In this document: piece after piece, positions 3,616 through 44,431 of the stretch | How positions within the stretch are numbered: position 1 is the first letter of the stretch | Layout of the letters: every line of letters starts with the position of its first letter | Assembly (NCBI GenBank): GCA_903813345.2 | Contig: CAIIXF020000001.1 | Coordinates: 7,130,001-7,194,000 of the forward strand | DNA length: 64,000 bases | Reading direction: 5' to 3' | Origin: Owenia fusiformis | Taxonomy: Eukaryota | The notes under the pieces: generated by a model | Databases searched by the model: none | Told to the model about the DNA's origin: nothing | Seen by the model: the letters and a program-made list of their open reading frames with translations, nothing else | Made by a program: the position numbers and the translations under genes

Positions 3616-3620
3616 AGTTA

Positions 3621-5513: not shown

Positions 5514-5653
5514 TGCCTTGGTCACATAGGCTCCGATTTTCACTACGGCGCCCGGCCGATTGAGTATTTTGTTCAAAATTGAATACAATATTGAACAAAA
5601 CACTCAATCGGCCGGGCGCCGGCCGATGGATCGGAGCATATGTGACCCAGGCA
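5514..5653. mobile_element. 140-bp fold-back MITE (PIF/Harbinger-like) in the last exon of the receptor gene
   Basis: TIR TGCCTTGGTCACATAGGCTCCGAT / ATCGGAGCATATGTGACCCAGGCA plus an inner inverted repeat. Flanked by TAA (5511-5513) and TCA (5654-5656). Removing 5514-5656 joins ...YLAW to LDINKGY... in frame. Confidence 0.8.
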
Positions 5654-10715: not shown

Positions 10716-11321
10716 AAAGGAGTAGTATCGATATGGTGAACCTTTTGAACACGCGTTTCTCTTAAACCAGTCATCAAAACATTCTGAAAATTTTACACAT
10801 CGTCAATGTAATAGTTATCTTTTGGATGGTAACATCTATCCGAACCTCATTGGAACAAAATTTATTTTCTTAGACCTCTCAATATTATAGTTATACAAAG
10901 GTAATTTTGGTTGATTTACAAAAAATATGCAAAACTTAAAACAAAACCCCCCCAAAATAGATAAAAATTAACATAAACCTTTTATTTCATCAACAAGATA
11001 CTTTTTTTTAAATCAACCAAACTTTCCTTTGTGCAATGACAATATTGAGAGACCTAAACACGTTGTGTTTATGTCGTTTTGTTCCAATGAGATAGTAAAT
11101 GTTTCATTTCATCCCGAACATATGATACCAAGAACAAAAGAAGTGGCTGATGTGTTTTCTAAAACAATATAGAGAAAAGTATATATATATATTTCAAATT
11201 ATAATTACCATCCAAAAGATGATCATTAAAATGACGATGTGTAAAATTTTCAGAATGTTTTGATGACTGGTTTAAGAGAAACGCGTGTCCAAAAAGTTCA
11301 GCATATCGATATCACTCCTTT
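10716..11321. mobile_element. Fold-back MITE (AAAGG...CCTTT termini); related copy at ~37822-38546
   Basis: ~90-bp inverted arms GAACCTTTTGAACACGCGTTTCTCTTAAACCAGTCATCAAAACATTCTGAAAATTTTACACATCGTCA / reverse complement at 11231-11321. Confidence 0.8.
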
Positions 11322-11995
11322 ATTTGACAACATAGTGCATGTAAATGTTGTTAAATAAATACTAAACATCGTGTGAAATTATATGTCACTATGACCCATC
11401 TTTTAACAGTTTTAACATTAGAGCTTATCTCTCAAATGGCGAACCTTTAATCGTTTGAAAATGTTGGAACATCCAACTGTTGCATGAAAACTTGAAATTA
11501 CAGTAGTACAATAAAAATAAACCTTGAAAATATAATTGCAGGTTTGTTCAAGGGAACGAGAAAACATGAACGCTTAAAGCGCGATTTAATAAACAACGAA
11601 AAATCTGTCAAACGACAATAGGCCTGATGACATAAATAGCAAGTACAGTGTAAGGTTAAAAGAATTAAAATGACTAATGGTGCAAATGTGACTCATAGAG
11701 AACTGATCTCAATGGGCGTCGGGTCAAACTAGATAACAGCAACGCCAAAGCGTAGCTAATCCAATCGAACAGCCATGGCTGCCAATTTTACAAAAATCCT
11801 TCAACCACTTTTTCAGTTATCGCAAAAATCGTATAATAGCACACATAAAAAAATGGCCACCATTTTCAGAATGATCGCTTAGTGACAAGCCAAATTGTCA
11901 TAAGAAAGTATAATATACTTCTAAATTAATAGGCACATAACAAAACGTACATGTAAATGGCGGCCATTTTGACAGTAGCCGCATACTAGCCAAAA

Positions 11996-12708
11996 GCCCA
12001 ATTTACACTACGCGCAGCATTTCAAGACGTTTTGGCTAAAACGTTTTAGGAAAATTAAGTTGAGTTTACATTACCACTTTCAAGACGTCTTAGGAAATAA
12101 GATCGACTTTACACCTGTTTTCCTAAAACGTCTTAGAGATATGTAGGTATACATGTAAAATGAAAAAAAAGCAGTTCAGTGCTGGTTGAACGACGGCTCA
12201 GTCAATATAGCTATTCCTTTCCCGCTTCTATACTTCGTACTCGACTTTGTACTGAAGAATGCATCGGTTTCAGAAAAATATGTCCTAAAGACAGCATTGT
12301 TAAAAGCATGAAAGAGAGCAGGAAGATTGTATGCATAAATTAGGATTATGATAAATCGCCAGCCAAATAAGTTCTTCTCAATAATTTTGGGATGATATTA
12401 GGAACAAGGGATAAGGCAAAATAAAGGACCATGCAACATATGTAAATGGAAAGTTTCAAATGTTTCGTTCGGCGAAACGCAAAAAACCGGGCTAAGAGCT
12501 CTTAGCTAAAACCGATGGATTTACACTTGCTTCGTAAAACGTTTTAACGCTAAGACGTCTTGGCTATGACTAGGGTTCTAAAACGTTTTAGCTAAGCGCT
12601 CTTAGCCGAGAGCTCTTGAGTAAATCTGGATTTACATTACATTTGTAAAACGTTTTAACGCTAAAACGTTTTAGCTAAGACGTCTTAGCGCGCAAGTGTA
12701 AATCCACC
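11996..12708. mobile_element. Harbinger-like MITE nested in a HINE-like fragment (~11735-12990)
   Basis: ATTTACACTACGCGC / GCGCGCAAGTGTAAAT ends with many AAAACGTTTT/AAGACGTCTT palindromes. It interrupts the host unit CTAGCCAAAA|GTGTCAT shared with 19674-21190. Confidence 0.6.
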
Positions 12709-13515
12709 AAAAGTGTCATAAGACAATGTGCCATGCTTGTGAGTATTTACATATCAAATATGAACAAAATCGCTCTATTACTTTATCAGTTATAGTAAAA
12801 CGTAAAATAACGTAATAATGGCAGCCATTTTCAAAATAGCCGCCGTCTAGCCAAAATGTCATGAAACAGTGTGCTTATGAGTATACATATCGAATATGAA
12901 CAAAATCGCTAGATACTACTTTTCAAGTGACAGCAAAAACTGTAAAATAGCGTTTAGCTGCTAACATAAATGCAAGTTTTAACAAAAGTGAACATGTCTC
13001 AAATGCTATGACGATTATTTGAAAATGATTTTGAAAACTTATTTTATTACTTTGAGAACTAAAAAACAATTCTATTCTACCTGTATCACATGGTTTATAT
13101 ACATCATTTTAATGTACATCTATCCTGTAAACCATCGAACACGAACTCTCCCGACTTCCAGCTCTCGCACTCTTTTGTATTCTGTTCTCGGGGTAAGAAT
13201 AAAACGGGGTATATACTATACACGTCATACCCGGGCTCTTCAGAGTCAGGGATTTTTATGAATCACTACTAGTAAGTTACGGGCGTGTTCGTCTTTTGTA
13301 AGTGTTTGTGCTGAAATAACACTTAAACTCGAATTGACACACGAGTCATCAATCGTGTTGGAAATCCTGTTGGTTTTTAACATGCGATGAAGAGGAGGGA
13401 AACCCTCAGAGCGGTAGCGATGACAGACATGCATATTACGCCTCGTTTGCGCAAATTCTCACCATTTAATCAGTTTTTGAATATAACATGTCGTTGTGAT
13501 GCTTTAATCGATGTA

Positions 13516-14574
13516 CAGGGTGTTCCAAAAGTAACAGGACTGGTGCTGGCATTTTGTTAAATATGCACCAATCAGCTTCAAAATTTTACATAATGTACTT
13601 TCATGTATCTTTACTAAAACGTCAAAGTTTCGACAAAAAATATGTAACCCGGGTAGAGTTATGGTTGCTATGGTAACATGACATCACAATACCCGGGGCA
13701 ACATTCCACGCAGAAAGTTACATTAAGACAGAAAGAGACATTAAGCATTTTGTGAATCCCATATCAAAGTTAAAATGCAACAACTGGTGGGAATTACATT
13801 TGTTTTACATAATTTGATATTCCTATGTATCCTATTTACTTTGAAAAATAGGCTCCTCTTTGGTCAGTAGAAGAGTAGCACTCTGTATCCATGACTCAAA
13901 CACATGATTGAACCCATTTGAGGACATGTCACGCATGGTCGATTGAACAACTTGGAGAAGGTCATTTTCATTTTTAAAGATCTTACAGCACTGCTTAGTA
14001 TTCCATTCTCCATATAAGTAAAAATTGGATGTTGCATGATCAGAAGAGTATGGTGCATGGTTTAAGAACTCAAGACCTAGCTCCTCTATAGCTGCATGGT
14101 CTTTAATGGTGACCTGCGGGCAGGCTTGTTATCAAGGTGGATGACTGGCTTCAAATTGGGTCTTCTCAAAAACTCAACCATGAATTGTTCAGACTAATTC
14201 ATTGTGATATTCTAGGAAATTGAATAAATATAATTATAATGAAATTATACTTGAATCTGAGTTTTATAGCAACACCTTTACAACAAAGCAACTAATAAAA
14301 TAAACAAGAAATGTTGTATTATAATAGGTAAATTAGATACTTTCTTCAGTAATACAAAAATGTTAGATATCACATTTTCAGAAAAAAGTTGCCCCGGGTA
14401 TTGTGATGTCATGTTACTATAGTAACCACAACTCTACCCGCATTTCATCATTTTTTCTGAAACTATACAATTTTAGTTGCAATACTTTAAAGTACAATTT
14501 GTGAAAGTTTGAAGATAATCAGTGCAAAATTGACAAAATGCCAGTACCAGTCCTGTTACTTTTGGAACACCCTG
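13516..14574. mobile_element. Tc1/mariner-type MITE with TA TSD
   Basis: TA-CAGGGTGTTCCAAAAGTAACAGGACTGGT ... ACCAGTCCTGTTACTTTTGGAACACCCTG-TA, with ~200-bp imperfect arms. Confidence 0.9.
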
Positions 14575-15185
14575 TAAGCATATTCCTTCCATCTTTCTTT
14601 ATCTTGATGTGAAATAACAAGCTATGATATTGGTTAACACGCCAGAAATTAACATAATATTATTCGAAGCGTTATTAGAAAATTTTTAATCTGCCATTTT
14701 TGTTTGTCGATTTGGACCAATCAGGATGGTGGGTCATCTCAATACAATTTTACTATAGACGTACGTCATATTTGAACACTGGGATTTCTCCCCTCTTATG
14801 CGTGTGTGAGCTTTTTAAATCAATCTTTGAATTTCGAGGAAGATTGGCTCCCAGGATCGACAGTCGATATTTTCCAACAATGAAAACGTCGAAATGTCGT
14901 TATTTTCTGAAATTACTACCGAGTATAAAGTCAAAGAAACAGTCCAATAGATTCGAACCAATATCTCGATCATTTCTTTTGGAGTTTGGGAATTTTTCGT
15001 TTGGGCATAAGACCAAAATTCACGATTCAAATGCTGAAGTGAACAAAATGGCGGCTGTTTTCAGAGCTTTAGCGATGACAGACATATGATAGTACGTCTC
15101 TTGCGTACCACCTTCGTTTGCGCAAATTCTCACCAGTTAGTTTTTGAATACTAGTAGAACATGTCGCTGTTATGTTTTAATCGAT

Positions 15186-15424
15186 CGTAGGCGTAGCCAG
15201 AGGGCTACGATAATACCCCCTCATAACCTATAAAACCATGAGGAAGAGGAAGACAAGAGCTTTAAAAAGCTTTTTATTCGAAGCTTCTTGCTCAATTTTG
15301 AAGGAAGTTGCATCAATAATATGTTTATGCTTGTTTATGCCACAATCGCAACCCCCTGACAGAATACCGAAATTTTTGGCGATAGCACCCCCTCCTCCCT
15401 GACTGAAAGCTGGCTACGTCCCTG
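15186..15424. mobile_element. CAGGGGCG-type MITE with 5-bp TSD
   Basis: GGCGTAGCCAG / CTGGCTACGTCCCTG ends. TCGAT at 15181-15185 and 15425-15429. Confidence 0.75.
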
Positions 15425-15744
15425 TCGATGTAAGCATATTCCTACCATCTTTCTTTATCTTGCTGTGAAATAACAAGCTATATTGGTTAACACGCCAGAA
15501 ATTAAGATAATATTATTTGAAGCGTTATTAGAAAATTTTGAATCCGCCATTTTTGTTTGTCGATTTGGACCAATCAGGACGGTGGTTCATCTCAATACAG
15601 ATTTACATTATAGACGTATGTCATTTTTGAACCCTGGGGTTTCTCCCCCTCTTACGTATGTATGTATGTACTACCTTTATTTCCTCCATAAATCTTATTA
15701 AGGGAATTCCCCCGAAATAAATAAAATTGAATATGTGATAAGTA

Positions 15745-16385
15745 CAAGGGCCGATCAAAAAGTTTCTTACCGTTGGCTCTCAATTTTATAATAAGAAGAG
15801 TTAGAAGCTCAAACTTTACCATGAGACAGGATAGTTAGTTTGCTTGGAACTGTATAAGTTTCATATTATTGATAGTGACACAGAGTCAGTTCATATTTTC
15901 AATGACATTGTTAGGTGGAGCAGCGTTATATATAAAATATCTGCCGAGTTGTGGTTCTGGAAATTTACCGACATCGTTTCAAACCTCTCATACGGAGGCC
16001 TTAAACATGTGTTTTTGGATCGAGTGGACAGATATAGAAAGTGCATTGCAACTGGGGTTGAATATATATTGAATGAGAATGATTATTAGCAGAAAAACTA
16101 ATTAAACGTGATTAAATTACAGTCTGTTGACAGATGACACTACTTAGTGTTAGAATTTTCCAAAACTGCAGCTTAGCACAATTTTTTATAAAAAACGCTG
16201 CTCCACCTAATTCAATCATTGAAAATATGTATTGACTCTGTGTCACTACCAATGAACCAATTTAAATGAAACTCAGGCAATCTCAAGCAAACTTACCACC
16301 CTGTCTTATGTAAAAGTTTGAGCATCCAACTCCTCTTATTATAAAATCTAGAGCCAACGGTAAGAAACTTTTTGATCGGCCCTTG
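15745..16385. mobile_element. Internally deleted mariner-like element with TA TSD
   Basis: TA-CAAGGGCCGATCAAAAAGTTTCTTACCGTTGGCTCT ... exact reverse complement-TA. The internal remnant RYRKCIATGVEYI resembles the mariner transposase C-terminus (RxxKCIxxxGxY). Confidence 0.85.
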
Positions 16386-17071
16386 TATGTGTTCCTTGTC
16401 AAGCTCAGCCAAGGGTCAACTGTTTTCAATTACTTCAAAAATCAACTGCTGGGCTACTACATTATATTGAGAATATTGAGTAAATGAGTTTTATTTCTCA
16501 TTCAGATTGTGATTTTGATGTCATTCCATGCATCTACAAACTAAAATTTTCAGATTTGGAACTTCACCTGCATAAACAAGAACACATTTATATTGAATTA
16601 TAGTATAATGTTAGTTTATTGTTTCAGTTAAAACAAATGCGCAACTATAAGGTTGGAAAAAACTACTACAGCTTTTTTCTCACTATAAATCACAAGATAA
16701 AGTTAACGAAAATGTGTATACATATATTATTTACCGAATACTACTGCAATATAGATAGTGTGCATAAATATCTATTTCTAACCAGGATATTTTACTGCAT
16801 TATCCCACAAAAATAATTATTACATGTTATTCTGTTATACATGTATTCAAGTTTTATTTACAATAAACTCACCTATAAAAGTAAAAAATTGGATTTAGCC
16901 ATATTACAGTTATCCTTTCAAAGAGTATGTGAAAAAAGCTTTATCCACACTCATGTGTTTCTCTTATTTCTCTTATCTTAACTCTCAATTATGCATCAGA
17001 TATGTTAAAAAACAAGATAAGATGAAATCAGATTTCAATATTAAACATATGGTCATTGTTTTTAAATTGTG

Positions 17072-20000: not shown

Positions 20001-22563
20001 TTGAACAAAATCTCTCAACTTCTTTTCGAGTTATAGTAAAATACGTTAAAATGGCGACCATTTTTCAAAATGGCCACCTTCTACCAAAAGTGTCATTAGA
20101 AATAGACAGGGTGCCATGCTTATAGTATTCACATACCAATGAACAAAATCGCTCCACTACTTTTCGAGTTATAGTAAAATATGTTAAAATGGCAGCCATG
20201 TGATAAAACTTATTGTTAGTACCTCAACTCAATTTTTCAAATTTTTTTTCAAAATTGCCGCCTTCTACCAAAAATGCCATAGGACAGTGTGCCATGCTTA
20301 TAGTATTCACATACTAAATATGAACAAAATCGCTCCACTACTTTTCGAGTTATAGTAAAATACGTTAAAATGGCGGCCATTTTTCATTTTTCTACCAAAA
20401 GTGTCTTTAGACAGTGTGCAAAGCTTATAGTATTCACATACCAAATATGAACAAAATCGCTCCACTATTTTTTGAGTTACAGCAAAAATCGTAAAATGAC
20501 GAGTAAAGGCTGCCATTTTTAAAGATGGCTGCCACGTGCTTCTTTAATATCTACATTTGTAGCATTATTAATGTCCTTTATATTCACAAATGTCCTTTAG
20601 TATTCACAAATATGAACAAAATCGCTCCACTACTTTTCGAGTTATAGCAAAATACGTTAAAATGGCGGCCATTTTTCAATTTTTTTTTCAAAATGGCCAC
20701 CTTCTACCAAAAGTGTCTTTAGACAGTGTGCAATGCTTATAATATTCACATACCAAATATGAACAAAATCGCTCCACTATTTTTTGAGTTACAGCAAAAA
20801 TCGTAAAATGACGAGTAAAGGCCACCATTTTTCAAGATGGCTGCCATGTGCTTCTTTAATATCTACATTTGTAGCATTATTAATGTCCTTTATAATTTTT
20901 TTACATTTAAAACATATTGCTATTACAGTTTTACATATTGCACCTAAATTACTGTAAAATCGGCACTAAAATGGCCGCCATTTTGAAATGAGCTGCCATT
21001 TCGAAAATCGGCTTTCGAGCAGAACTTCTACCCCCATAGGGTATATGTGTACAAAATATGAACAAAATCGGGCCAACGGTATTTGAGTTATTGCCCGGAC
21101 GGACGGACGGATGGACGGACTTACGTACGGACGGACGGACGGAGGCGTTCCCTATATCCCTCCGAACTTCGTTCGATGGGATAATAACAAAACTCATGGG
21201 CATTTTCTTGACAGATAGAATATCAAAATAATGACAAAATATTATTCAAAATGAATTAGTTTTAAACAATATTGTAACTTGTGATTTCCTTCAAGTTTTG
21301 AATCATATCTGTCATGTATAAATTGTATTCAAAATTAAAGGAATCTGTTGTTTGAACTTATCTAATTTTACAGGCCATGGGATACACAATGTTTTATAAA
21401 GCATATTATCTCTTTTGTTGAAAATTGTTTTAGATGGCCATAGGAGGCAATCATAGAAATACTTCAGCAACAATTCACTCGAACTCTTGCTTGATTGTGA
21501 TGATTATCATCTTGACTCACACTCATACTGTATAACTAAAAGGAAGTTCACCTTGTGGGTTGGTTGTAAGAATAGCATCACATATATTCAATTTGAGCAG
21601 GAAAGCCCTTAGAGCATCCTCCAAGCGCACTAGATACATGTCTTCACTGCAATGTAACCAAACAAAAGAATTCAGGTTTCATAAAATAATCACAATGTAA
21701 ATGTAGTGATATAAATTCAGCAATGAGTTTGACTAAAAGTTCTCCTAGAATAAGTGAGCTACTTAAATTCAAAAAATGATTGAAATACATGTCAATGCGA
21801 TTTAAGACATGTACCGCACATTAAGGGTTAATAGAATAAGAGTAAGAATGTACCTAAAATCACATGCTGTTGCTGAGGCAATCTCAAAGACGAATTTCTC
21901 TGTTGGTCTGCTGCTACCATCCAATATTGTCATACAGACTCGGTCAGCTGTATGCTTATCCAGCAATGGTTTCAGGCTCTGTATTGTGGCAATTATGTAT
22001 TGGTTCACATCTGGATGGGTTGACATTTGTATCGGAACATTGTATTTCTTGCGTCTTTCAAAGATACCTGCTGGGTATAGTTCTCTTGTGTAAAGAATAC
22101 TATGGAAGGCTACTTCAAGGAATTCACTTAAAATGTCAGATGTCACTGAAAGATAACAGTAAATATTGTTGCGAATAAGTTTATTTACAAAATACTTTTT
22201 AGTGATAACCTCAGAAAACTTCATATAAAACTTTTAGAAATAAATAACTGAATAATGAAGATTGATAGTGCACTGTGAATCACAATTTGCTGATGACAAA
22301 AAGAGGTGCAGTTTGACCTTAGGTTTATATTCTATTCAAATTCTATCACTGTTTTAATTGAACGATTATTGGCATAGACATAGCCTCAGAGAGCAAAAAG
22401 TGAAAAATTATTAGCAAATGCGAATGGGCGATAATGGAGAGAATTATTAGGATTTGTCTGTGGCGAATTGCAATAAATTCTTTACAAGGGACGAATATAA
22501 AATAAAAACGTTGATTTTACCTTGTGTTACATCAAGATTCGTTGAATTTCGTCCAGTATTCAT
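17072..22563 (-). CDS. MAD2L2: MAD2L2/REV7 HORMA-domain protein (DNA pol zeta / shieldin subunit), 6 coding exons, 213 aa
   Basis: Exons 22563-22521, 22145-21854, 21646-21552, 19494-19421, 17756-17664 and 17116-17072 total 642 nt, all GT/AG with consistent phases. Translation includes [72 protein letters not shown] and PLKSV..VVKMQLYVEE, matching REV7 hallmarks. Confidence 0.95.
17812..18332. mobile_element. Non-autonomous hairpin-containing interspersed element (possibly Crypton-like) in MAD2L2 intron 4
   Basis: Starts CTCGATTCTGATTGGTTGA. Internal inverted repeats GCGGTCAACA/TGTTGACCGC and a terminal long hairpin at 18160-18330. Family assignment is from recalled motif similarity only. Confidence 0.4.
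18637..19452. repeat. 79-81-bp minisatellite (~10 units) derived from the MAD2L2 exon-4 3' end and 5' splice site
   Basis: Unit on the minus strand: CATACATCAGAAATAGCTTACTTGTATGCTGAAATAAACATACACCTTAGCTCAA|GTAAGTATCAGCATTATTTCTATG. It aligns with exon 4 CATACAACAGAAATTGCTTATGCTGACATGAAACAAACACCTAAAGCTCAA|GTAAGT. Confidence 0.92.
19674..21190 (+). mobile_element. HINE/DINE-1/pearl-like (Helentron-associated) element with internal tandem repeats, in MAD2L2 intron 3
   Basis: Array of ~120-150-bp units containing AAAATGGCGGCCATTTT. (GGAC)n microsatellite at 21097-21142, then a short 3' hairpin CCCTCCGAACTTCGTTCGATGGG followed by ATAA. Confidence 0.75.
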
Positions 22564-23722
22564 GATTTTTATTGTTTTGAAAAGGACTATAATTTTTCAT
22601 TTTCTAATTAGGGATCCCGAGTGTTTTATTTTCAACAATATTGTGGAGAATCTGGTATTGCAATTCCAGTCATCCCCCTCCCACTCACTATGTATTAGGT
22701 AGAATTTTTACATTAGCTATTTGAAAGCCCATGGATTGACATACTATTTTATGACCAACTCATTTAAGCCTAAATATGAATGGAATAGTGGCAATTTCCT
22801 ACACACATGATTGGGCCTTTACTTGGGGTTTTGCCCCCCCCCCAGCTCTCGGAGGATTACTTAGTTTACTCAAAGCTATCCTGGCTATGTGCAAATATAG
22901 TAATCGGAGGAGATGTATTCAGAGGAACATATATATTGTCCTGGTACGGGATAAGGGAAGGGCAAAAGGCTTCGCAGTTAGACTCAGACTGCATAACTCA
23001 CCCATTCTCAATAAGAATGCAAAATAGGTGACCCAGGGCTCAATCTCAGCATTTACATTACCAACATCACTTTTTGTTGTATATATAAATAGTATATATG
23101 ACCCTCTACCTAGCACGTTTGTAATATATGATTTCTCAGTAACACATATTTTATTATATGTACTAGAATAGGGCTATTCATCAGTTACGTGACTGTCGCC
23201 ATATCAAAAATCAGGATTGTATGGTGCCATTAGAGAATTTTTCATGCATAACATCCCATATAAAGTGGTGTATTATACACAAGGCGATCCCAGCTTCTGG
23301 TTAAATGACAGAAACTATCATTTTGACATTTTAACCATGTTGAAACTGTTCCTTGACCAATGTCGCCAGACTTTTTTATATCAACCCCCCTGTGCTATAA
23401 ATCATATAAAAACTGGTGAAAAATTAATGTTTCATATGTGCCATATACGTATCTGGATTCCAATTTGAATACTTAATAGAAAGTCGTAAAAGTTGATATT
23501 TGAAACGTTGAGATTTTGGGGCCAGAAAATTATAATTCCCGTTTTTCATGAAGTTATAGATAAGAAAATCATTTACGTGATCATAGTTTTCACAGGCAAT
23601 AAGTGTCTGAGCAAATTAATGTTATATCACCTTATTGTATGGTAGGAGTGATCCTTGTTGATCAGTATTTTTAACTAAATTGACATTGTTTGAATATAAT
23701 ACAGCCAGCAAAAGGGTATTTC

Positions 23723-26482
23723 TGTTACGACCCTCGTGTGGTAGCGTGGTTTGGGGGTCGCAAACAGAATACAGTCTAAGAATCAATAGTTTGATTTGAT
23801 GTTTTCATTAACTTAGTTTCGGGACAAGTTCAAGTAAAAGTTGAAATGTGTATCCCTATTTATTTGAACAACATCCGTGTTCACAGTATCATAACAAAAT
23901 TGGATCAAATTGGGATAAATTTTGCGATGAAAATTTAGGGATAATTTAGGGATAAATTTAGGGATAAAAATTTAGGGATAAATTCTGGGATAAAAATAAT
24001 TGGGATGAAGTGGGACAATTTCGGGATAACAATTACGGGATAACAAAATCTGAATATAGACTAAGTAAGATTTGGCAGTTTTCAATGTAAGTTGTTTGTC
24101 TCATAAAGGCGAATGGCAACAGACTCCAGATTCTGAATGTGCCCAGTGTTCAGTTGTATCAAATAAGTATAATGTTAGGGTGTGAGTATAACCAGGTAGA
24201 AGTCTTAGCCACTGGGGGCTACAATGGACTTCAAGCTGTATATAAAGCTCACTGTTCACACTTAAAATGGGAGATTTTGTAAGAATTAACGTAGGGCTAT
24301 TTCAAATCAAGAGTCTGTCAAACTCATCAGGGGATAATATTACTTGTACACCATTTAAACAAGCAAGTAAGAAAACATTGGAAGTAAATGATGTTTGAGG
24401 TAACGACTGGGAACCAGGGTGAATGAAATTCTCACTAATATTCTCAATAAGATAAAGGTTAAATAAGAAAGTAAGATCCTGGATTGTACTTTAGCTTTGC
24501 ACTATTGCATAGTTTCTGGGAAAATATATGTATGACTTATTGTGAGTGATTGTTATTCAAAGAAGCCCTTAGCAAATATGAGCTAAGATAAAGCTTGTTG
24601 CTTGAATGTTAGTATCACTGAAGTCACCTGGAATTTAGTCAGAATCTATTTTGAATCCAGAATCTACTTTAGATAAAATGAGGGGGGATTTCTAACATAT
24701 ATATAAACAATTGAACACAAGAAGTGATATTCTGTGGATTTTTATATAATGTATAAAAACGACTCTATTTCTATGTACTAATCTACACAAACATTACACA
24801 ATTCAGTACTGCCGAGATGGTATATCAAGTAAATAATCTCTCAAACCAAACATGCATAAAACAGCACAGCTCACCCAAAAATGTAACTCAACAGTGCAAT
24901 TTTATATAATCCCTGGTGGGGTTGAAATCAGCTCTCTATACTACTCACATGAAAAGTAGAACATCATTTTGCCACTATCAGACTATGGTACAATTGGCAA
25001 GTAAACAGGAAACAGTATTTTAAAAGTATTCCAGTATCTATAATGAATTAGAATGTGGTTAACATAGAATTAGACCAGACATGGAAAACTAGAAGGGGAG
25101 GGGGTGTCTTAAGTCCGAAAATGGGCTTTGAATGACCGTGATCCTTAAAAGTACTGAACTTCAAAATGTCTGGACAGAGGCTTTAAAAGAAGCTTTAGTC
25201 TTAAAAGTGACTTCCAATGAACCTCGAAGGTACTTAATGTCAAAATATCCAAAATAGTCTTAAACTAGGCTTAAAGTCTTAAATTGAGCTTCAAATGTCC
25301 TTGACCCTTAAAAGTACTTCAATGATCAGTTGTTTGATAATGGTCCCATAAGCTCGTTATTTCACCTTTAAATTACCCAGAATTTAACATACAAATATAC
25401 AAACGAGTATTTCTAGTGTATTAATAAAATTTACCCTGTGAACAAACTAAATACAGTCCCAAACTGGATGGGGGGGGGGGAAGATGTCGTATAGAGGTGT
25501 CTATGAACCCCTGGAATTTGCAGTTGACTCTGGTTTAGAGCAAGCTACATAAGGTTCGTAAAGACAGTAACTTTCCGTACACCTTGTCAAATATTCCCAA
25601 ACGATTCCCTGTGGGGATGTTGTATAGAAGGTTCCATAAGGAACCCCGGGAACTTGCTTTCGACGCTGGTTAATAAGTTACATAGGTTCTTTAAGACAAA
25701 AACTCTGCGTGTAACTTTGCGTTAACCTTGTCAAATGTTCCTTAACAATCCCTGGGACAATTTAAACACGGGATGTTCACAAGGCAAATAAATAAAATTA
25801 AGGAAATAAATCAAGTTTACAGATACTTCTTTTCAAAGACTAAAACTCTGCAAAAATACAATTAGATCAAGTCAATTACCTTTACCAACTCGTACACCTA
25901 AGTTGGTTTATCTGCGGCAATATAAATATCCAATTTTAGTGACGATTTAATGTTTAAAATTCCACAAAATGTTTTCCATGTCTGGCCGGCTTGAATTCGA
26001 ATCATAAAAGCACAGAAAAAGACAATTCACTTAAATCGTGCTTATTTACTTAAATCAAGCTTAATAAGCCTCACTTTGGATTTTGAAAACAAACCCAGAC
26101 AACTGCCCTTTCTAAAAAGTTTGTAACATAACATTAAACATGAAACTGGGCCTAAAACCTTCATATTAAACTCATATTATGAACAAAATGTATATGTTGA
26201 CATTAATCCTGTAAATAATATTACATGAAAAACACAAGAGAAGGTTATTAACCCAAATATAAATATAGAGAAAAATGATTAAACTCTAACCATACTTTAA
26301 GAGTATAGCCAAAGTAGTAATACTGACTACCCTTTTACAGAATTTAAATTATTGTATAACTCTTTAAATATTGAGTAACTAAAAGCACAATTGATAAAGT
26401 GAAGAGCAAAAAGTTAAACAAAGTGACAATCCTTCAAGGCAATTCCATTACCATGCTCAAAGTAATCTGAAGGATCGTCACA
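23723..26482 (-). repeat. 3' LTR (2,760 bp)
   Basis: Preceded on the minus strand by the PPT. Candidate polyA signal AATAAA at 23864-23859. Confidence 0.95.
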
Positions 26483-26496
26483 CTGCTCCCCCTTTT
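26483..26496 (-). promoter_or_regulatory. Polypurine tract
   Basis: AAAAGGGGGAGCAG immediately before the 3' LTR on the minus strand. Confidence 0.88.
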
Positions 26497-28206
26497 AAAA
26501 GAGTTCGTCCTCGAACTATGAAATTATTGATAAAAGATGCAAATTATATATAAACACATTACCTAAAGTAAGCATTTCACACATCATTTACTACAACATA
26601 GTACCTAGTAAAGGAATTGATAAACATATATACACAATAAGGTTTTAATGTTTAATCAGTTTACTACTTAATAAACATAAGTCTAAATCAAATACAATGT
26701 TAGTTTACACTTTTCTCGATTTCTCAACTGAAATACATAACATAAAAAGGCTAGCATAATCTAATAAACAATCACATTTAATTACAAAAAATGTCTCTAG
26801 CAGCATTAGTGTCTTCCTTCTTTCTCTTGTAGGTCATGGTTCTTGTCAAGGGTTGAAGTAATATCCATACTGTCTGCATTAAGTTTATCAAACGTTCTTA
26901 CCATCACATTAATTGATGATACAGTCATTGTCACTGGTTCCCCACTATAATAAGGGAATATGTTAAGTATTTGGCATGGTCTCCAGTACAATATAAAATT
27001 GAGATTGTCAGCCATTCTTCGTGTCCTTCCTCAAAATGCAGAGTCATCACAAAGCTGCAGAATTAATTCTCATAAGTATAGAGTACATGTCTCTGTTTAT
27101 AAGCTTTAATTCTCAATGTCAATATTAAGAGTGGCTCCCAATATCGTCGCTTCATTGGGTACACCAAATAAGTCACTTTAATCGAACAGCAATCATGATA
27201 GTGTTCATTAAGATTACTTTTATATAGCATAGTGTACAATGTTCATTAGGTTGAAGGTCATCACATGGTTCATGCTGGGCTGAAATAAAACTGTTAGTCC
27301 TGGAAATAAGATTAGTTATTCACATAGTACAATAATAAATTTTGAATATCACACATGTGATATGAATTGGCCGAAATAAAGGGTTTTCAAATGAGATTGA
27401 ATCAATCAAACGTATGATCAAGATATATCCTTTCACAATCAGCTTCGGATTGGTAGCATTCAGATAACATCTCATAACATTTGTACTGGGAATGATTCAA
27501 ATTCAGTCACCAAGTCATTTTTGGTACAAAGGCAGTTAGGGAGGTGAGGTAGGATTCAAACTTGATGGGAACATCCATTGCTTTGGATGGGATCACAAGC
27601 TGGTACAGTTGCTTGAAAGTGGAACTGGGGGTATGAGGGGAACCTACAGTCAGTAGTAGGGAAACACTTCGATGAAGCAAATGGACAGAGCTCTTGTCCA
27701 TCGGGCACTCACCCCCAGAGGGTCACAAGTTGATCCACCTCATTTAAACAGAAGCAGGGACAAAACTATAATATTTCAATGTCATTTGGATTCCAATAGA
27801 CTTGTTTCCCAAAGCGTAAACAGGCTTCATGGCCGTAAACATTGGTTGATCAGGCCAATGTTCACAATGAACCCCATTGCTTGAGTAAAGTAGGTCACTG
27901 GTAATCCAGAACATATTGACAATCAAATAATGCTCTGCTGTGGTCATGTCATCACTACCACTGAGCATTGTAGTTTAAGCTTATCAGGAATCAAAGCTTC
28001 AACAGCTCAGGACATCTGGTAGACATAAGATGAGAAACATCAGGAATGGGACAGGAAAACTTCAGTAAAGAAAAATAAAATTCGTTTTTTTCTTACATTC
28101 ACATCAAACACATATCGTTTCACCAGCCACTCTTTGGAAGGATATGATGTACCTGTGGTGGCTTGGACTTACTATACAGATACATTCATGCAAGTTAGCT
28201 TAAAAG

Positions 28207-31200
28207 CTAACTTAGCCTTCCCTTAAGGGAGGGGCATGCATTTACACAGTGAGTGTCCTGGGCACAATAGAAGCATACTGTAGCTCCAGGAACTTTGGAG
28301 TTTGGATGTCTTTTGGTACAATCAAATACTGAATGACTTCCAGAGTCACATATTTTACAGTATTTTCTTTTCAGTTTGGAATCAGGTTTCTCCTTTGTTA
28401 TAGTTTGAGTCAGATTTCGTGCTAAAGCCTCTATCTTTTGCTCAACTATTTCCATCACATCATTCTCAGAAAGAGATAATGAGGTAGATGAGTTAACCTG
28501 AACAGGAGTTGGAGTAGCACATACACCAGGGTCTTGGAAACGTTCAAGTCTTTTCTTTCTTCCCTTGAAGAAAGCTTCATATTGTAAAGCCATGGTAAGA
28601 GCTTCATTGAGGGTTTTAGGGTTAGAAAAAGAAAGCTTGGATTCCAGTTCTTCATTATTCAAAGCATCAATGAAGGCCTGTGTAGCTAGGTCATCAATTG
28701 TCTTCTTTGACATGCTTGACTTCCCAAAAGCTTGTCTTGACAATTTTCTTATATCATGGGCTAACTTTTCAAGAGGCTCATTATTGCCCCTTAACTTATG
28801 TTTAAGCTCGGCACGGGCATGGTTACTTTGTTCGGGTGGTTCATAGTTAATTTTCAGGACATTTATGATACTAGCTAAGGTTGGCAGGTCTTCATCATCC
28901 AAATCATCTAAAACATTGACAGCCTCTCCTTCAAGACTCCTCACCATAAAGATGGCAGATTCTTCATCTGTCCAACCATTTATGTTAGAGACAAGTCTAA
29001 ATTGGACAAGAAAAGCTGAGAGACTGCACTTTCCATTGAAAAGTGGTGCTTTCATTTCCTTTCTAGAAAACGAAGTACCTCTTCTTTGCTTTTCAAGTCC
29101 AGTACAGGATTCCTGATCAGATGTATTAGGACTGGATATAAACAGATCATTGGGTTTTTCGATCCGTCTGTAGAGACCAGGGGAACTTGGATTCACTTTT
29201 GATCTACTCATAACTGTAGATCTAAGGGGAGGTAAACTATTTTCCATAGCAGATTCATACTCATCAGAATTATTCATGTAGTAAAATGGCCTTTGTCTAG
29301 TTTTTGTATGGTAAGATGGGCATTTCATACTATATTCTACATAATCTCGGTCAGAAAATTCAACAGCGGTTTCAAATTCTGGAGAGGGGAATAGTGATTC
29401 AGCTCGGGAGGATCTAGCATAATCCTCGTTTACCCCCTGTTTGAAGGGGAATTTTTGACAAGGTGTGCACACACTACAAGCATCCTGGGCTGACATCTCA
29501 TGGGAGGGCAAGGCACTTCTGTTATAGCCAGGTATTTGAGCATCAAGCCATGAATGTGTCTCCAAATCTGAATCATAGGTCTGATCCACACTTTTGGGTA
29601 GACAATATGGCTGTCTGCGATTGGCAGAAAACTTAGTGCTTTGAGATGATTTGTCTGATAAACTGAACATATCAGATCTATCAACAACTTGGATTTTGCA
29701 AGGAGGGGATTTACTAGATTCACATAAAACTCTATCATTAGGCCTCTTTAAATCTTGTCTACAAAGGGTACTTTCGGGTTGATGCATACATTCATAACGT
29801 TTGGACTTAATATCCGAGTATGGGACAGTCTGCTCAGTTAAAAATTCAGCATGTTTCAACTTGTTAGGTTCACTTAATTGAGTAATCTCTTTTGTTACTT
29901 TAGGGACATTTGGAAGCTGGAAATCCCTGTTGAGATCACATGACTCATCAGCTGATAGTGCCTCTTTAGGCAAACCTCTTGTGTATTTAAGGTCATTACA
30001 CATTGAGAGTGGTATTCTATCAGATGGGATCAGTAAAGAGCTTTGCAAAGTCTGTTTTAACAGTTCACCCCCATATGCTTCCTGGAGCATGTCACTCTCA
30101 TGAGGTACTGGTAGCACCGGAGGAAGGGATGGAACCTGGTAGTTGACTTGCACATCCTTTACTACTCCCATTTTGCTAGAATGACCTAACAAATCATAGT
30201 TTGGCTTTGTATAGTCGTCTTTTCTCTCTTGTTTGACATAAATTTGGGACTTCAGTGTCAAATTACGGGAATGAGAGAAATCTGGGGTCTTTGGTCTAAA
30301 TCTGGGAATGTCAGTTATCTTTATTGGGGGAAGTAATGGTCTAAATGGAGAGGACTGAAATTTGTTTGGCCAGCTCTGTGGCTCATTTTTCTGATTCGCA
30401 CTTGGTAATAGAGGAGAAGTATGCATTGAATGTTTGCTTGGGTTTAAATCAGAAAAACTGCCATGACTTGCAGATCTTCCATGAGAAGAAACCTTTGTGG
30501 ATGTCATTAAACCCTGTCCAGACTTTCTACCAGCTGTATGAGTAGATGCACTGGATGGCTTACCAGGGTAAGCACGAGGGAGTGTTTGGACATCTAAGGG
30601 TTTTCTAGATTGGAATGTTCCCATTGTTGACAGTTTATCCAATGGTTTTTGCAATTCAGAGGACTTAGCAATTTGAGAATCACTTGTCCTTTCATACTTA
30701 GGGTGTAAAACTCTTTGATCATTAGGCCCTAAATCCGTTTTTAAATAGGGGGCTAAACTGAGGGGTGAAAAAGCTTGTTTAGTAGTAGCTCTTGTTCCAT
30801 TGGCTGGAAGAGGCTTTAAAGGAGGTGTTTTAGATGGCATTCCCCCATAAGCACCCATCAGGGTTTCCCTTTCAAGGGACCCAGGTGCACCAGCTATGGG
30901 GGGTTCATATGCCCCACCTCTACTACTCACACTTTTTTCACCATTTTTTGAAGATACCAAATTCATGTCATTTTTGGGGTCTTTAGTCTCCTGCTTAACC
31001 CTTTTAAGCAGGGAATTAAACAACCTACCCTTGGGAAGTGGTCTAGGCCTATCTAACAGTAATTTAGGAATGCGCGTCAATTTGACAGGTGGAGAAACCT
31101 TAAAAGATGGTCTCTTTATTGGGGGTGGTGTAGTTACTGATGATTCAAGTGGAAGTGTATCGTCTTGAGCCAATTTCAACTCTTGTTCATTAAGGTGTTG

Positions 31201-31359
31201 ATGGCCCAATACAACTTCAGAATCATCAAACCACCCGGGGATAATAGTGTCAAAAGTTTCCGCCTGCGATTTCTGGCTAGACAAGGGTCTTTCAGTGGAT
31301 TCGGACATGTGTAATGGGGTGCGCTTAGCGAGATTAAAAATGTCCAACTTTTCCGACAT
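28207..31359 (-). CDS. gag: Gag-like protein (~1,050 aa): long S/P-rich N-terminal region, Ty3/gypsy capsid domain, two CCHC zinc knuckles
   Basis: Uninterrupted ORF with the first ATG ~105 nt after the PBS. Capsid-like segment PLFNGK..FLVQF..VSNINGW..SLEGEA..ARAELKHKLRGNNEPLEKLAHDIRKL..AFIDAL..PKTLNEAL. Knuckles CKICDSGSHSVFDC and CFYCAQDTHCVNAC fit CX2CX4HX4C. Confidence 0.92.
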   Translation of the reverse strand: MSEKLDIFNLAKRTPLHMSESTERPLSSQKSQAETFDTIIPGWFDDSEVVLGHQHLNEQELKLAQDDTLPLESSVTTPPPIKRPSFKVSPPVKLTRIPKLLLDRPRPLPKGRLFNSLLKRVKQETKDPKNDMNLVSSKNGEKSVSSRGGAYEPPIAGAPGSLERETLMGAYGGMPSKTPPLKPLPANGTRATTKQAFSPLSLAPYLKTDLGPNDQRVLHPKYERTSDSQIAKSSELQKPLDKLSTMGTFQSRKPLDVQTLPRAYPGKPSSASTHTAGRKSGQGLMTSTKVSSHGRSASHGSFSDLNPSKHSMHTSPLLPSANQKNEPQSWPNKFQSSPFRPLLPPIKITDIPRFRPKTPDFSHSRNLTLKSQIYVKQERKDDYTKPNYDLLGHSSKMGVVKDVQVNYQVPSLPPVLPVPHESDMLQEAYGGELLKQTLQSSLLIPSDRIPLSMCNDLKYTRGLPKEALSADESCDLNRDFQLPNVPKVTKEITQLSEPNKLKHAEFLTEQTVPYSDIKSKRYECMHQPESTLCRQDLKRPNDRVLCESSKSPPCKIQVVDRSDMFSLSDKSSQSTKFSANRRQPYCLPKSVDQTYDSDLETHSWLDAQIPGYNRSALPSHEMSAQDACSVCTPCQKFPFKQGVNEDYARSSRAESLFPSPEFETAVEFSDRDYVEYSMKCPSYHTKTRQRPFYYMNNSDEYESAMENSLPPLRSTVMSRSKVNPSSPGLYRRIEKPNDLFISSPNTSDQESCTGLEKQRRGTSFSRKEMKAPLFNGKCSLSAFLVQFRLVSNINGWTDEESAIFMVRSLEGEAVNVLDDLDDEDLPTLASIINVLKINYEPPEQSNHARAELKHKLRGNNEPLEKLAHDIRKLSRQAFGKSSMSKKTIDDLATQAFIDALNNEELESKLSFSNPKTLNEALTMALQYEAFFKGRKKRLERFQDPGVCATPTPVQVNSSTSLSLSENDVMEIVEQKIEALARNLTQTITKEKPDSKLKRKYCKICDSGSHSVFDCTKRHPNSKVPGATVCFYCAQDTHCVNACPSLKGRLS

Positions 31360-31465
31360 TGTCAATTACAGTTAATGATCCCGCTTTGAATATTAATGAG
31401 TGCAAATTAGCATAAACGTAAGTAATGGCGTAAAAATGGGCTTGGGTCAATACTTCAAGTATTGC

Positions 31466-31483
31466 ATCCCACCGCTGCCACCA
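31466..31483 (-). promoter_or_regulatory. Primer-binding site complementary to the tRNA-Leu (AAG/TAG type) 3' end
   Basis: Minus strand TGGTGGCAGCGGTGGGAT, 4 nt after the 5' LTR. The plus strand ATCCCACCGCTGCCACCA equals the 3' 18 nt (with CCA) of the conserved animal tRNA-Leu(AAG/TAG), from recalled sequence. Confidence 0.85.
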
Positions 31484-31487
31484 TTTC

Positions 31488-34247
31488 TGTTACGACCCTC
31501 GTGTGGTAGCGTGGTTTGGGGGTCGCAAACAGAATACAGTCTAAGAATCAATAGTTTGATTTGATGTTTTCATTAACTTAGTTTCGGGACAAGTTCAAGT
31601 AAAAGTTGAAATGTGTATCCCTATTTATTTGAACAACATCCGTGTTCACAGTATCATAACAAAATTGGATCAAATTGGGATAAATTTTGCGATGAAAATT
31701 TAGGGATAATTTAGGGATAAATTTAGGGATAAAAATTTAGGGATAAATTCTGGGATAAAAATAATTGGGATGAAGTGGGACAATTTCGGGATAACAATTA
31801 CGGGATAACAAAATCTGAATATAGACTAAGTAAGATTTGGCAGTTTTCAATGTAAGTTGTTTGTCTCATAAAGGCGAATGGCAACAGACTCCAGATTCTG
31901 AATGTGCCCAGTGTTCAGTTGTATCAAATAAGTATAATGTTAGGGTGTGAGTATAACCAGGTAGAAGTCTTAGCCACTGGGGGCTACAATGGACTTCAAG
32001 CTGTATATAAAGCTCACTGTTCACACTTAAAATGGGAGATTTTGTAAGAATTAACGTAGGGCTATTTCAAATCAAGAGTCTGTCAAACTCATCAGGGGAT
32101 AATATTACTTGTACACCATTTAAACAAGCAAGTAAGAAAACATTGGAAGTAAATGATGTTTGAGGTAACGACTGGGAACCAGGGTGAATGAAATTCTCAC
32201 TAATATTCTCAATAAGATAAAGGTTAAATAAGAAAGTAAGATCCTGGATTGTACTTTAGCTTTGCACTATTGCATAGTTTCTGGGAAAATATATGTATGA
32301 CTTATTGTGAGTGATTGTTATTCAAAGAAGCCCTTAGCAAATATGAGCTAAGATAAAGCTTGTTGCTTGAATGTTAGTATCACTGAAGTCACCTGGAATT
32401 TAGTCAGAATCTATTTTGAATCCAGAATCTACTTTAGATAAAATGAGGGGGGATTTCTAACATATATATAAACAATTGAACACAAGAAGTGATATTCTGT
32501 GGATTTTTATATAATGTATAAAAACGACTCTATTTCTATGTACTAATCTACACAAACATTACACAATTCAGTACTGCCGAGATGGTATATCAAGTAAATA
32601 ATCTCTCAAACCAAACATGCATAAAACAGCACAGCTCACCCAAAAATGTAACTCAACAGTGCAATTTTATATAATCCCTGGTGGGGTTGAAATCAGCTCT
32701 CTATACTACTCACATGAAAAGTAGAACATCATTTTGCCACTATCAGACTATGGTACAATTGGCAAGTAAACAGGAAACAGTATTTTAAAAGTATTCCAGT
32801 ATCTATAATGAATTAGAATGTGGTTAACATAGAATTAGACCAGACATGGAAAACTAGAAGGGGAGGGGGTGTCTTAAGTCCGAAAATGGGCTTTGAATGA
32901 CCGTGATCCTTAAAAGTACTGAACTTCAAAATGTCTGGACAGAGGCTTTAAAAGAAGCTTTAGTCTTAAAAGTGACTTCCAATGAACCTCGAAGGTACTT
33001 AATGTCAAAATATCCAAAATAGTCTTAAACTAGGCTTAAAGTCTTAAATTGAGCTTCAAATGTCCTTGACCCTTAAAAGTACTTCAATGATCAGTTGTTT
33101 GATAATGGTCCCATAAGCTCGTTATTTCACCTTTAAATTACCCAGAATTTAACATACAAATATACAAACGAGTATTTCTAGTGTATTAATAAAATTTACC
33201 CTGTGAACAAACTAAATACAGTCCCAAACTGGATGGGGGGGGGGGAAGATGTCGTATAGAGGTGTCTATGAACCCCTGGAATTTGCAGTTGACTCTGGTT
33301 TAGAGCAAGCTACATAAGGTTCGTAAAGACAGTAACTTTCCGTACACCTTGTCAAATATTCCCAAACGATTCCCTGTGGGGATGTTGTATAGAAGGTTCC
33401 ATAAGGAACCCCGGGAACTTGCTTTCGACGCTGGTTAATAAGTTACATAGGTTCTTTAAGACAAAAACTCTGCGTGTAACTTTGCGTTAACCTTGTCAAA
33501 TGTTCCTTAACAATCCCTGGGACAATTTAAACACGGGATGTTCACAAGGCAAATAAATAAAATTAAGGAAATAAATCAAGTTTACAGATACTTCTTTTCA
33601 AAGACTAAAACTCTGCAAAAATACAATTAGATCAAGTCAATTACCTTTACCAACTCGTACACCTAAGTTGGTTTATCTGCGGCAATATAAATATCCAATT
33701 TTAGTGACGATTTAATGTTTAAAATTCCACAAAATGTTTTCCATGTCTGGCCGGCTTGAATTCGAATCATAAAAGCACAGAAAAAGACAATTCACTTAAA
33801 TCGTGCTTATTTACTTAAATCAAGCTTAATAAGCCTCACTTTGGATTTTGAAAACAAACCCAGACAACTGCCCTTTCTAAAAAGTTTGTAACATAACATT
33901 AAACATGAAACTGGGCCTAAAACCTTCATATTAAACTCATATTATGAACAAAATGTATATGTTGACATTAATCCTGTAAATAATATTACATGAAAAACAC
34001 AAGAGAAGGTTATTAACCCAAATATAAATATAGAGAAAAATGATTAAACTCTAACCATACTTTAAGAGTATAGCCAAAGTAGTAATACTGACTACCCTTT
34101 TACAGAATTTAAATTATTGTATAACTCTTTAAATATTGAGTAACTAAAAGCACAATTGATAAAGTGAAGAGCAAAAAGTTAAACAAAGTGACAATCCTTC
34201 AAGGCAATTCCATTACCATGCTCAAAGTAATCTGAAGGATCGTCACA
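31488..34247 (-). repeat. 5' LTR (2,760 bp)
   Basis: Same length as 23723-26482, with no differences seen on inspection (including an 11-G run). Followed on the minus strand by GAAA and the PBS. Confidence 0.95.
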
Positions 34248-34659
34248 CTTGCATCATTTACGACACCATCATTTACGATACCTAGTAGTACGAAAATAAC
34301 GGTTACCATACTCCTAGCTCTGAATAAAGTTTATAAAGCGGGAAATTTGAGAATTCATATTCATTTGAATCTGAATAAAGAAACACTACCACCTTTGTAG
34401 AGTAAATCCACACAATTTAAGGTATATATCACACCTAATATAGTATCGCTCTTGTAAAACGAAGATGTAGTGTTAATTTGATGTTATCTATGGCATAAAG
34501 ACAGTCAGTATAAATGTGAAGATGAATATAAAAACACTTTTCTATCATTCAATTTGAATTGAAGCTATAGTCTTGCGTTTTCTATGTCATAAATTACGTT
34601 ACCATAGGTAACGTAATTGATAAATTCTATTGCACACATTTTCTGTCGTCAAATCTTTA

Positions 34660-43437: not shown

Positions 43438-43991
43438 ATATATATATATAACTTTTATTGACATATAGTATCATAACATGATTACATTAGTCAGAACTAT
43501 GGTAGACTACATATCTAAACTACAAAACACCAACTAAACTAAAAATACAAAAAATATATAAGGTAACAATAATAGTATGGTGCACACACAATGCATTATG
43601 ACCATGTTAAATTCTTAAATGAATGGTAAATGAATTTGCCAATATGTCTTTGCAAGGTTACATTTTTACTAGAAATAAGATTGACAAATAAATTTTCACT
43701 TTGTAAATCCAAGTTAGGTAAAATTTCACGGGCTTTTGTAAATAATATTTGCCTATTCTCATCATTTTTTGTACAAGCTAAAAAGAAATGACATTCATCC
43801 TCTACATCTTTACAAATATTACATACTCTGTCCTCTAAAGGTTTTGGTTTTGGCTTTGTATGTCTTCCAGTCTCAATTGCTAACTGATGAGAACTCATTC
43901 TAAATCTACTTGTAGCCAATCTATACTTTTTATTATCTAGTTTCAAGTACAATTCTTTACCAAAATCATTTTTAAATACATATCTATACAT
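43438..43991 (-). mobile_element. 5'-truncated LINE 3' fragment (ORF2 C-terminal Cys/His region, RTEX-like)
   Basis: FRMSSHQLAIETGRH...RVCNICKDVEDECHFFLAC, then a 3'UTR, AATAAA and a (TA)n tail at ~43438-43460. Confidence 0.75.
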
Positions 43992-44431
43992 ATATATACA
44001 TATACATACATATCAGTGTTTTGAGGGTGTTTCTTGTTACTCAAGGGGGGGGGGGCACTCAATCTGTTGAATATTTAGGGGTTTATGTTTTAATGTTCTT
44101 CACCAATTTTCTATACTCAAATACCATACATACTATACAATTATATATCATACATATTATCAAATTAATGAAAATATTATCTGTCCAACCATGGGCTTTC
44201 AACTAGGGCTTTTCTAATTGAAAGCCCATGGTCCAACACAAGGAAAAATATTTCACTTTTTGTGATCTTATAACATGGGGTCTATAGGGAATCTACTCTA
44301 CCCAGTAGTCTGACATTTTCAAAAAAAAATTAAATTTTCTGAAGTTGATAAGTAATAATGTAAATCACTTTTTTAGATGTAGATTTCAAACTATCACTTT
44401 GACTAAATTTTGAATGATGAATGACATAAAT

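Follow-up and report, generated by a model that had tools for sequence, protein, structure and literature searches.

The window analysed here is the whole 64-kb stretch (positions 7,130,001 to 7,194,000 of contig CAIIXF020000001.1), and all coordinates given are positions within it. It contains intron-bearing host genes with Death, ZU5, LRR and HORMA domains, identified with Pfam, and a long terminal repeat (LTR) element, the subject of this report, which lies on the minus strand and whose only open reading frame (ORF) is a gag gene. A preliminary description, made from the letters alone, had placed a very young gag-only element at 23718-34249 of an animal-type genome. The host genes agree with an animal setting, and because the closest protein relatives of the element are also from Owenia fusiformis, the genome is taken to be of annelid type. 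The element itself is a structurally complete LTR retrotransposon and is very young.

Two exact direct repeats of 2,767 bp, without a single mismatch between them and with identity ending abruptly at either side, bound a unit of 10,532 bp and make up 52.5% of it. The preliminary description had reported LTRs of equal length without visible differences that fill over half of the element, and the alignment of the two copies agrees. Since the sole long ORF is on the minus strand, the element reads from right to left (34249 to 23718), making the right-hand copy the 5' LTR (Table 1). The boundaries first proposed are those of the exact repeat and hold as such, but the inverted LTR termini TGTGACG...CGTAACA, which were read directly, lie 2 nt and 5 nt inside them. 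In element orientation the 5' LTR starts AG-TGTGACG and finishes CGTAACA-GAAA. The extra AG (34249-34248) equals the spacer between the polypurine tract (PPT) and TG, while the extra GAAAT (23722-23718) corresponds to the spacer between U5 and the primer-binding site (PBS) plus the first PBS base. By our own arithmetic the divergence of the LTRs is below about 0.1% at 95% (3/2,767), a limit that does not convert into years without a rate, and the insertion would accordingly be recent.

The order of parts is 5' LTR, PBS, 106-nt leader, gag, 1,722 bp of non-coding sequence, PPT and 3' LTR. Both priming signals named in the preliminary description, a tRNA-Leu PBS of 18 nt and a PPT, were recovered. 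The PBS string has one exact occurrence in the window and none in 100 shuffles. It equals letter for letter the 'tRF-Leu-AAG mimic' given in PMC9161985, which is a human tRNA fragment. A tRNA scan of the window found no tRNA genes. Self-BLAST of the element against the window returned no additional copy and no solo LTR, and revealed an internal duplication of ~130 bp, 70% identical, within the LTR. Eight of nine LTR frames of at least 50 aa were without a Pfam match and the ninth gave one at chance level (SBF2, E 0.067); Rfam had no matches across the window. Predicted LTR signals are TATA at about 24746 and 24906 and AATAAA at about 23864.

Table 1. Parts of the gag-only LTR element and its insertion junctions, in window coordinates
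Feature	Position	Strand	Details and evidence
5' LTR (exact-repeat copy)	31483-34249	-	2,767 bp; TG...CA core 31488-34247; 0 mismatches vs 23718-26484
PBS	31466-31483	-	18 nt; complementary to tRNA-Leu(AAG)-type 3' end; GAAA between the CA of the LTR and the PBS
gag ORF	28207-31359	-	1,050 codons + TAG stop, intact
gag N-terminal ~770 aa	29053-31359	-	Ser/Pro/Leu/Lys-rich; internal repeat, aa ~60-175 and ~335-432
Capsid (CA) domain, two-lobed, gag aa ~770-942	28534-29052	-	Pfam, AlphaFold, Foldseek
Nucleocapsid, two CX2CX4HX4C zinc knuckles, aa 1001-1014 and 1029-1042	28234-28359	-	Regular expression and profile
Hairpin enclosing gag stop codon UAG, 10 bp with 4-nt loop	28191-28214	-	Perfect pairing
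Internal non-coding region at place of pol	26497-28206	-	Stops, Pfam, tblastn; multi-copy in runs X1 and X24
PPT AAAAGGGGGAG	26486-26496	-	Then C, AG and the TG of the LTR; 3 nt upstream of TG (read directly)
3' LTR (exact-repeat copy)	23718-26484	-	TG...CA core 23723-26482
Left insertion junction	23718-23722	.	Empty allele: 23721 joins directly to 34251
Right insertion junction	34248-34251	.	Repeat ends and empty-site contigs

The gag ORF is as flawless over its 1,050 codons as the preliminary description had it, and its product is a genuine capsid and nucleocapsid protein, in agreement with the earlier view that the element builds its own capsid. Pfam gave a Ty3_capsid match at aa 778-939 (E 7e-4) with 19.4 bits, below the curated cut-off of 29.1, and two zinc knuckles follow. 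A profile was built from gag aa 671-1050 and 32 relatives (31 of the 150 listed from the search described below, and a Pecten protein). Against solved structures it matched the nucleocapsids of retroviruses (human immunodeficiency virus, HIV, and murine leukaemia virus, MLV; E 4e-5) and Ty3 Gag 6r22 (E 2e-4). In the AlphaFold model the predicted local distance difference test (pLDDT) value is mostly above 90 at model residues ~100-272, equivalent to gag aa ~770-942, where nine helices form two lobes, and below 50 in the modelled N-terminal part (gag aa 671 to about 760). Foldseek searches of PDB gave two matches at E<=1e-3, both to the PNMA2 capsid (E 5e-4), followed by the dArc1 and dArc2 capsids (template modelling score on target up to 0.69), human Arc, the C-terminal capsid domains of Ty1 and PEG10, and the HIV capsid, with a sequence identity of 15-16% in the structural alignments. 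The ~770 aa preceding the capsid match no Pfam family and are low-complexity and likely disordered.

A two-lobed capsid fold is shared with Ty3 Gag, dArc1/2, Arc and PNMA2, and a CCHC nucleocapsid with Ty3. With an intact ORF and a fold closest to the PNMA2 and dArc capsids, the locus might be taken for a host gene in the making, that is, a domesticated Arc/PNMA-like capsid gene that has kept its LTRs. Domesticated gag genes are single-copy fixed loci without LTR, PBS or PPT function, whereas this element has intact LTRs, PBS and PPT and is, as described below, multi-copy and insertionally polymorphic, which makes such an origin highly improbable. At the six gag positions listed where other sequencing runs differ from the window, two differences are synonymous and four change an amino acid, too few to judge selection. 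The suggestion that the element is an intermediate toward Arc/PEG10-like capsids is speculation, as likeness in fold to PNMA2 and dArc is expected of any Ty3-type gag.

Relatives of gag were sought exhaustively with phmmer among 1.84 billion representative proteins: 3,730 reached E<=1e-3, of which 1,378 also passed E<=1e-10 and six E<=1e-30, and 150 of the matches were listed. Nearly all relatives align to gag aa ~760-1046. Among the 150 listed, no protein matched in the capsid part exceeds 862 aa; a single longer entry, from a fish (3,038 aa, E 1e-45), aligns in 25 short stretches with the N-terminal repeat region, which we read as low-complexity matching. Convincing relatives of the gag N-terminus were restricted to two proteins of Owenia fusiformis, P0001 and P0002. 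P0001 (350 aa) has 79% identity at gag aa 312-450 and 49% at aa 957-1049 and is without a capsid, while P0002 (420 aa) has 40% identity at gag aa 360-614 and matches the N-terminal extension alone. The two proteins indicate that the gene annotation of Owenia fusiformis includes capsid-less, rearranged derivatives of this gag family. P0001 joins N-terminal gag sequence straight to the zinc-knuckle tail. Other capsid relatives listed by name include proteins of O. fusiformis and Mytilus coruscus. A word-index search among proteins of 577-1,838 aa gave no match at E<=1e-3 among 8,000 scored candidates, and the same type of search among longer proteins with the C-terminal 350 aa of gag gave one match in 3,390 candidates, a protein of Pecten maximus (1,069 aa, 26% identity) that combines gag with protease, reverse transcriptase (RT) and RNase H. 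A metagenome single-protein scan gave 100 pattern matches, none of them a relative.

The hairpin that encloses the gag stop codon has, in an 81-nt context, a minimum free energy of -27.6 kcal/mol (z -3.86), and none of 200 shuffles was equally stable. It might be a relic of gag-pol recoding or a cis element; the frame past the stop closes after 3 codons.

Searches of the window revealed no trace of protease, RT, RNase H or integrase. The 1,722 bp that separate the gag stop from the 3' LTR hold 36-44 stops in each sense frame, in accordance with the ~1.7 kb of non-coding DNA that the preliminary description had noted where pol would be expected. Its nine stop-to-stop frames of at least 50 aa gave no Pfam match at E<=10, and tblastn of the Pecten protein against the whole window found gag only (29061-28222, E 7e-21), the other three matches having E >1. 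The TG...CA LTRs, PBS, PPT and capsid plus CCHC gag of Ty3/gypsy elements are present, and pol and a 4-6-bp duplication are absent. Judged from its gag, the element would be a non-autonomous member of the Ty3/gypsy superfamily, and given the lack of protease, RT, RNase H and integrase the copying of its RNA would depend on enzymes provided in trans.

Absence of pol from one copy might have another cause, in that the family could be an autonomous Ty3/gypsy family with gag, pol and a 3' non-coding segment, from which this copy alone lost pol, by a template jump while it was being reverse-transcribed or by deletion soon after insertion. Gag and interior would then show similar depths in other sequencing runs, as they do, and the hairpin at the gag stop could be what remains of a gag-pol recoding signal. 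Such a deletion has, however, left no pol similarity on either side of the putative breakpoint, and had it followed the insertion it must predate any substitution in 2 x 2,767 bp of LTR. The size of the proteins with capsid-part matches among the 150 listed speaks against it as well: no close gag-pol fusion was seen, although transposon-derived proteins of Owenia fusiformis were present in the library searched. We consider a one-off deletion unlikely, and the pol-less state is probably common to the family.

Four sequencing runs bearing the same species label (X1, X3, X21 and X24) were compared with 21700-31530, a stretch chosen to include one full LTR. X1 consists of contigs, probably from DNA, X24 of raw DNA reads and X21 of stranded RNA raw reads. 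That X3 is RNA is a guess; it holds intergenic and empty-site contigs and was not used for expression. In X1, 2,644 contigs matched, 1,152 of them at >=99% likeness, 881 at 95-99% and 611 at 90-95%. Contigs of the single-copy flank had a word depth of 27-78, compared with 1,289 for the piece at 27925-28075 in the non-coding interior (151 nt, 1 difference) and 999 for the one at 28379-28523 in gag (145 nt, 4 differences). Summed bin depths, which are not copy numbers, were 7,000-16,400 on the LTR, 2,500-8,700 on the interior and 3,200-5,900 on gag. We take these depths to mean no more than that there are tens of copies and that interior and gag are similarly abundant. Reads of X24 also pile up on the LTR, interior and gag and barely cover the unique flank. 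The element thus belongs to a multi-copy family that covers LTR, gag and interior.

Within the LTR, element-sense reads of X21 were confined to 24652-26619, the U3-like two-thirds, at a depth of 2.4-14.2, with 0-0.23 over the last ~930 bp of the LTR, within 23668-24651. This cover fits neither the predicted TATA nor the predicted AATAAA positions. Joints or loose ends are located within the LTR at 24172/24967, 24216 and 24770, and the LTR may be a mosaic with another expressed repeat.

An empty version of the site was seen in two runs from two studies. One contig of X3 (81 loose letters) and two of X1 match the left flank up to 23721, where they pass into the right flank; the consensus of X3 equals window 34251-34280 exactly, and that of X1 differs from it at 3 of 30 letters. 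The insertion is therefore polymorphic for presence and absence. The loose end in X3 corresponds to 34251-34280, which places the insert at 23722-34250 with a possible shift of up to two T. Read along the element, the target GATGC-AAAT-ACCC becomes GATGCA-AG-[TG...CA]-GA-AATACCC. Relative to the empty allele every target base is present exactly once, and no choice of boundary yields a target-site duplication, the flanks differing throughout. The insert is the TG...CA core plus four nucleotides, namely AG, the spacer between PPT and LTR, and GA, the start of the GAAA spacer between U5 and PBS. The AAT that comes next is common to this spacer with the first PBS base and to the target, giving a microhomology of 3-4 nt (AAT/AAAT) at the PBS-side junction, a homology so short that it could be chance. 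Because AG and GA(AAT) are retained at the ends, the exact repeat extends beyond TG...CA by 2 nt on one side and 5 nt on the other.

Full-length linear complementary DNA (cDNA) of retroviruses carries nucleotides outside TG...CA that are removed at integration, a process which also makes a short duplication of the target. With the outer nucleotides kept and no duplication made, the junctions have the pattern given by integrase-independent joining. Lack of matching duplications is usually put down to recombination between elements, and the alternatives here would be a canonical integrase insertion whose duplication was later erased, or a recombinant of two copies with different flanks. The empty allele, in which 23721 joins 34251 with nothing missing or duplicated, speaks against them. 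Had two insertions recombined, the DNA lying between them would be deleted or rearranged. In addition, by our own arithmetic, 2 + 5 nt of extra identity would arise by chance at ~4^-7, or at 4^-4 for the 4 nt that are not target-derived. An origin of this kind is extremely unlikely.

The assembly itself could also be at fault, either through an LTR wrongly duplicated or through reads of an extrachromosomal cDNA or circle threaded into the scaffold. Perfect identity over a 2.77-kb repeat is what a collapse or duplication error yields, no run was shown to bridge the filled junction, and two other runs have the empty site. Such an error would not be expected to set PBS and PPT beside the correct, different LTR ends, nor do the junctions resemble random chimeras, as both flanks meet the element at one genomic position with microhomology and without loss of target. 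High heterozygosity for young transposon insertions would moreover be expected in such genomes. We regard an artefact as very unlikely.

Taken together, it is reasonably likely that the locus holds a recently retrotransposed, polymorphic copy of a multi-copy, pol-less element of Ty3/gypsy type in an annelid-type genome, captured as unprocessed cDNA. In the mechanism we propose, the element supplies its own Gag, in which a low-complexity, likely disordered N-terminus precedes the two-lobed capsid and the pair of zinc knuckles, and it carries the cis signals for reverse transcription, namely LTRs with TG...CA ends, a tRNA-Leu-type PBS and a PPT. Its RNA would be packaged and then reverse-transcribed with enzymes supplied in trans by another element, although no such helper was seen. 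Host end joining or annealing would then have incorporated an unprocessed full-length linear cDNA where the chromosome was broken, and for this copy we think capture of that kind quite probable. The active lineage put forward in the preliminary description is compatible with these results, since a gag without pol, many copies and a polymorphic insertion fit an active or recently active lineage that borrows RT and other enzymes in trans. A wider version, in which an annelid lineage of capsid-encoding satellites has cDNA ends that the integrase of the helper does not handle and enters the genome routinely via host break repair, seems improbable. Were it true, it would represent a natural retroelement on an integrase-independent pathway that has so far been seen mainly in mutants.

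Several observations weigh against a pol-less family with cDNA capture. At all six gag positions listed for X1, and at five of the same six in X3, the whole depth carries a letter differing from the window, so that an exact copy of the window element, or an identical source copy, was not seen in these runs. In X21, the one run of RNA raw reads, sense cover of gag is low, at 0-2.5 compared with 14.8 on the neighbouring HORMA exon. The junction rows listed include no filled junction, and the filled allele comes solely from the assembly. Similar depths of gag and interior are also what autonomous copies with the same 3' non-coding segment would give, and contigs of ~150 nt cannot span the junction from gag to interior, with 24 of 514 loose-end rows listed. 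X24 represents a diverged genome and gives poor copy counts, 2,442 of its 3,512 reads being 90-95% alike and 3,309 of the 3,512 lying only partly on the stretch. Finally, a single junction pair cannot show the usual insertion mode of the family. On the supporting side, 49 reads of X24 pass out of the LTR at 26482, where CA/TG lies, and not at 26484, into heterogeneous sequence (agreement 0.42). This single line from a diverged genome suggests that other copies end canonically at TG...CA.

Gag-only LTR families have already been published in plants (TR-GAG) and vertebrates (BHIKHARI). The preliminary description had stated that such elements are known mainly from plants, which is correct with regard to the plant TR-GAG (PMC4350172) and overlooks published animal families, Bik-1 and Bik-2 (PMC12067270). 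As described in the latter source, the zebrafish BHIKHARI elements Bik-1 and Bik-2 have gag, lack pol as well as env, are insertionally polymorphic and presumably depend on trans-complementation, with no partner identified in that account, which also gives chicken ENS-1 as an example of a non-autonomous variant. The present element resembles Bik-1 and Bik-2 in being an animal LTR element with gag only that is multi-copy, young and polymorphic. In contrast, Bik-1 and Bik-2 are vertebrate endogenous retroviruses whose polymorphic insertions have perfect target-site duplications (PMC12067270), while the element has a Ty3-type gag, an annelid-type host, a length of 10.5 kb, LTRs of 2.77 kb, a gag extension of ~770 aa and no duplication. 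These features, Ty3-type gag in an annelid-type host, size, LTR length, long gag N-terminus and junction, set it apart from the published gag-only families. Our literature search found no report of gag-only Ty3-type elements in annelids or other invertebrates; it did not cover papers on Owenia transposons.

The label first given to the element, TR-GAG/LARD-like, could not be kept. TR-GAG elements of plants, as characterised in PMC4350172, are shorter than 4 kb, have a copia-type (UBN2) gag and 5-bp duplications, and are thought to be trans-mobilised. LTRs, PBS and PPT around a lone gag ORF without pol are shared with them; a length of 10.5 kb, a Ty3_capsid-type gag and animal-type host genes exclude identity. 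LARD elements, in the terms of the same source, share with the element a length above 4 kb, long LTRs, the lack of pol and non-autonomy, yet their interior is non-coding (PMC4350172), whereas the element keeps a gag of 1,050 codons.

The repair-type insertion stands out as the detail of greatest interest and the one best open to testing. Li et al. 2022 described insertion without integrase for Tf1 and for integrase mutants of HIV-1, with some virus-derived PBS nucleotides kept at junctions (PMC11042837). Those events share with the present insertion the lack of a duplication, nucleotides past the processed end and short target homology at the primer-proximal cDNA end. According to the same report they are laboratory events, mostly at pre-existing elements and with tandems formed via Rad52 annealing (PMC11042837), while the insertion described here is natural, apparently heritable, at a unique site and with only 3-4 nt of homology. 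With so little homology, classical or microhomology-mediated end joining is equally possible. The clean junction would be a rare natural and apparently heritable insertion of LTR-element cDNA without integrase processing. More generally, gag-only elements show a retroelement parasitising the enzymes of another while packaging itself, and they could plausibly provide the starting point for capsid genes of the host, Arc and PNMA among them.

Other features of the window were noted around the element. Its 3' LTR ends about 1.5 kb upstream of, and in the same orientation as, a HORMA-domain exon at 21802-22233 (-; Pfam E 1.3e-7), which is expressed in X21 and has a splice-like loose end at 21854. 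The encoded protein resembles REV7/MAD2L2. Between the exon and the LTR a short, very high-copy repeat is located at 22684-23011 (centre 22733-22793), marked in DNA and RNA runs by a depth spike (X24), loose ends numbering in the hundreds (22733 and 22767) and an 'opposite strands' joint (22767/22793). It has the look of a foldback or of an element resembling a miniature inverted-repeat transposable element, with no relation to the LTR element. At 5654-9567 (-) are exons of a host gene whose product has LRR, ZU5 and Death domains. An open frame of 138 aa at 43596-44012 (-) has a Cys/His-rich tail and no Pfam match at E<=0.01; we take the tail to be reminiscent of the C-terminus of non-LTR retrotransposon ORF2. 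A further open frame of 167 aa at 55237-55740 (-), without a Pfam match, is composed of a ~16-aa tandem repeat and is probably a translated minisatellite.

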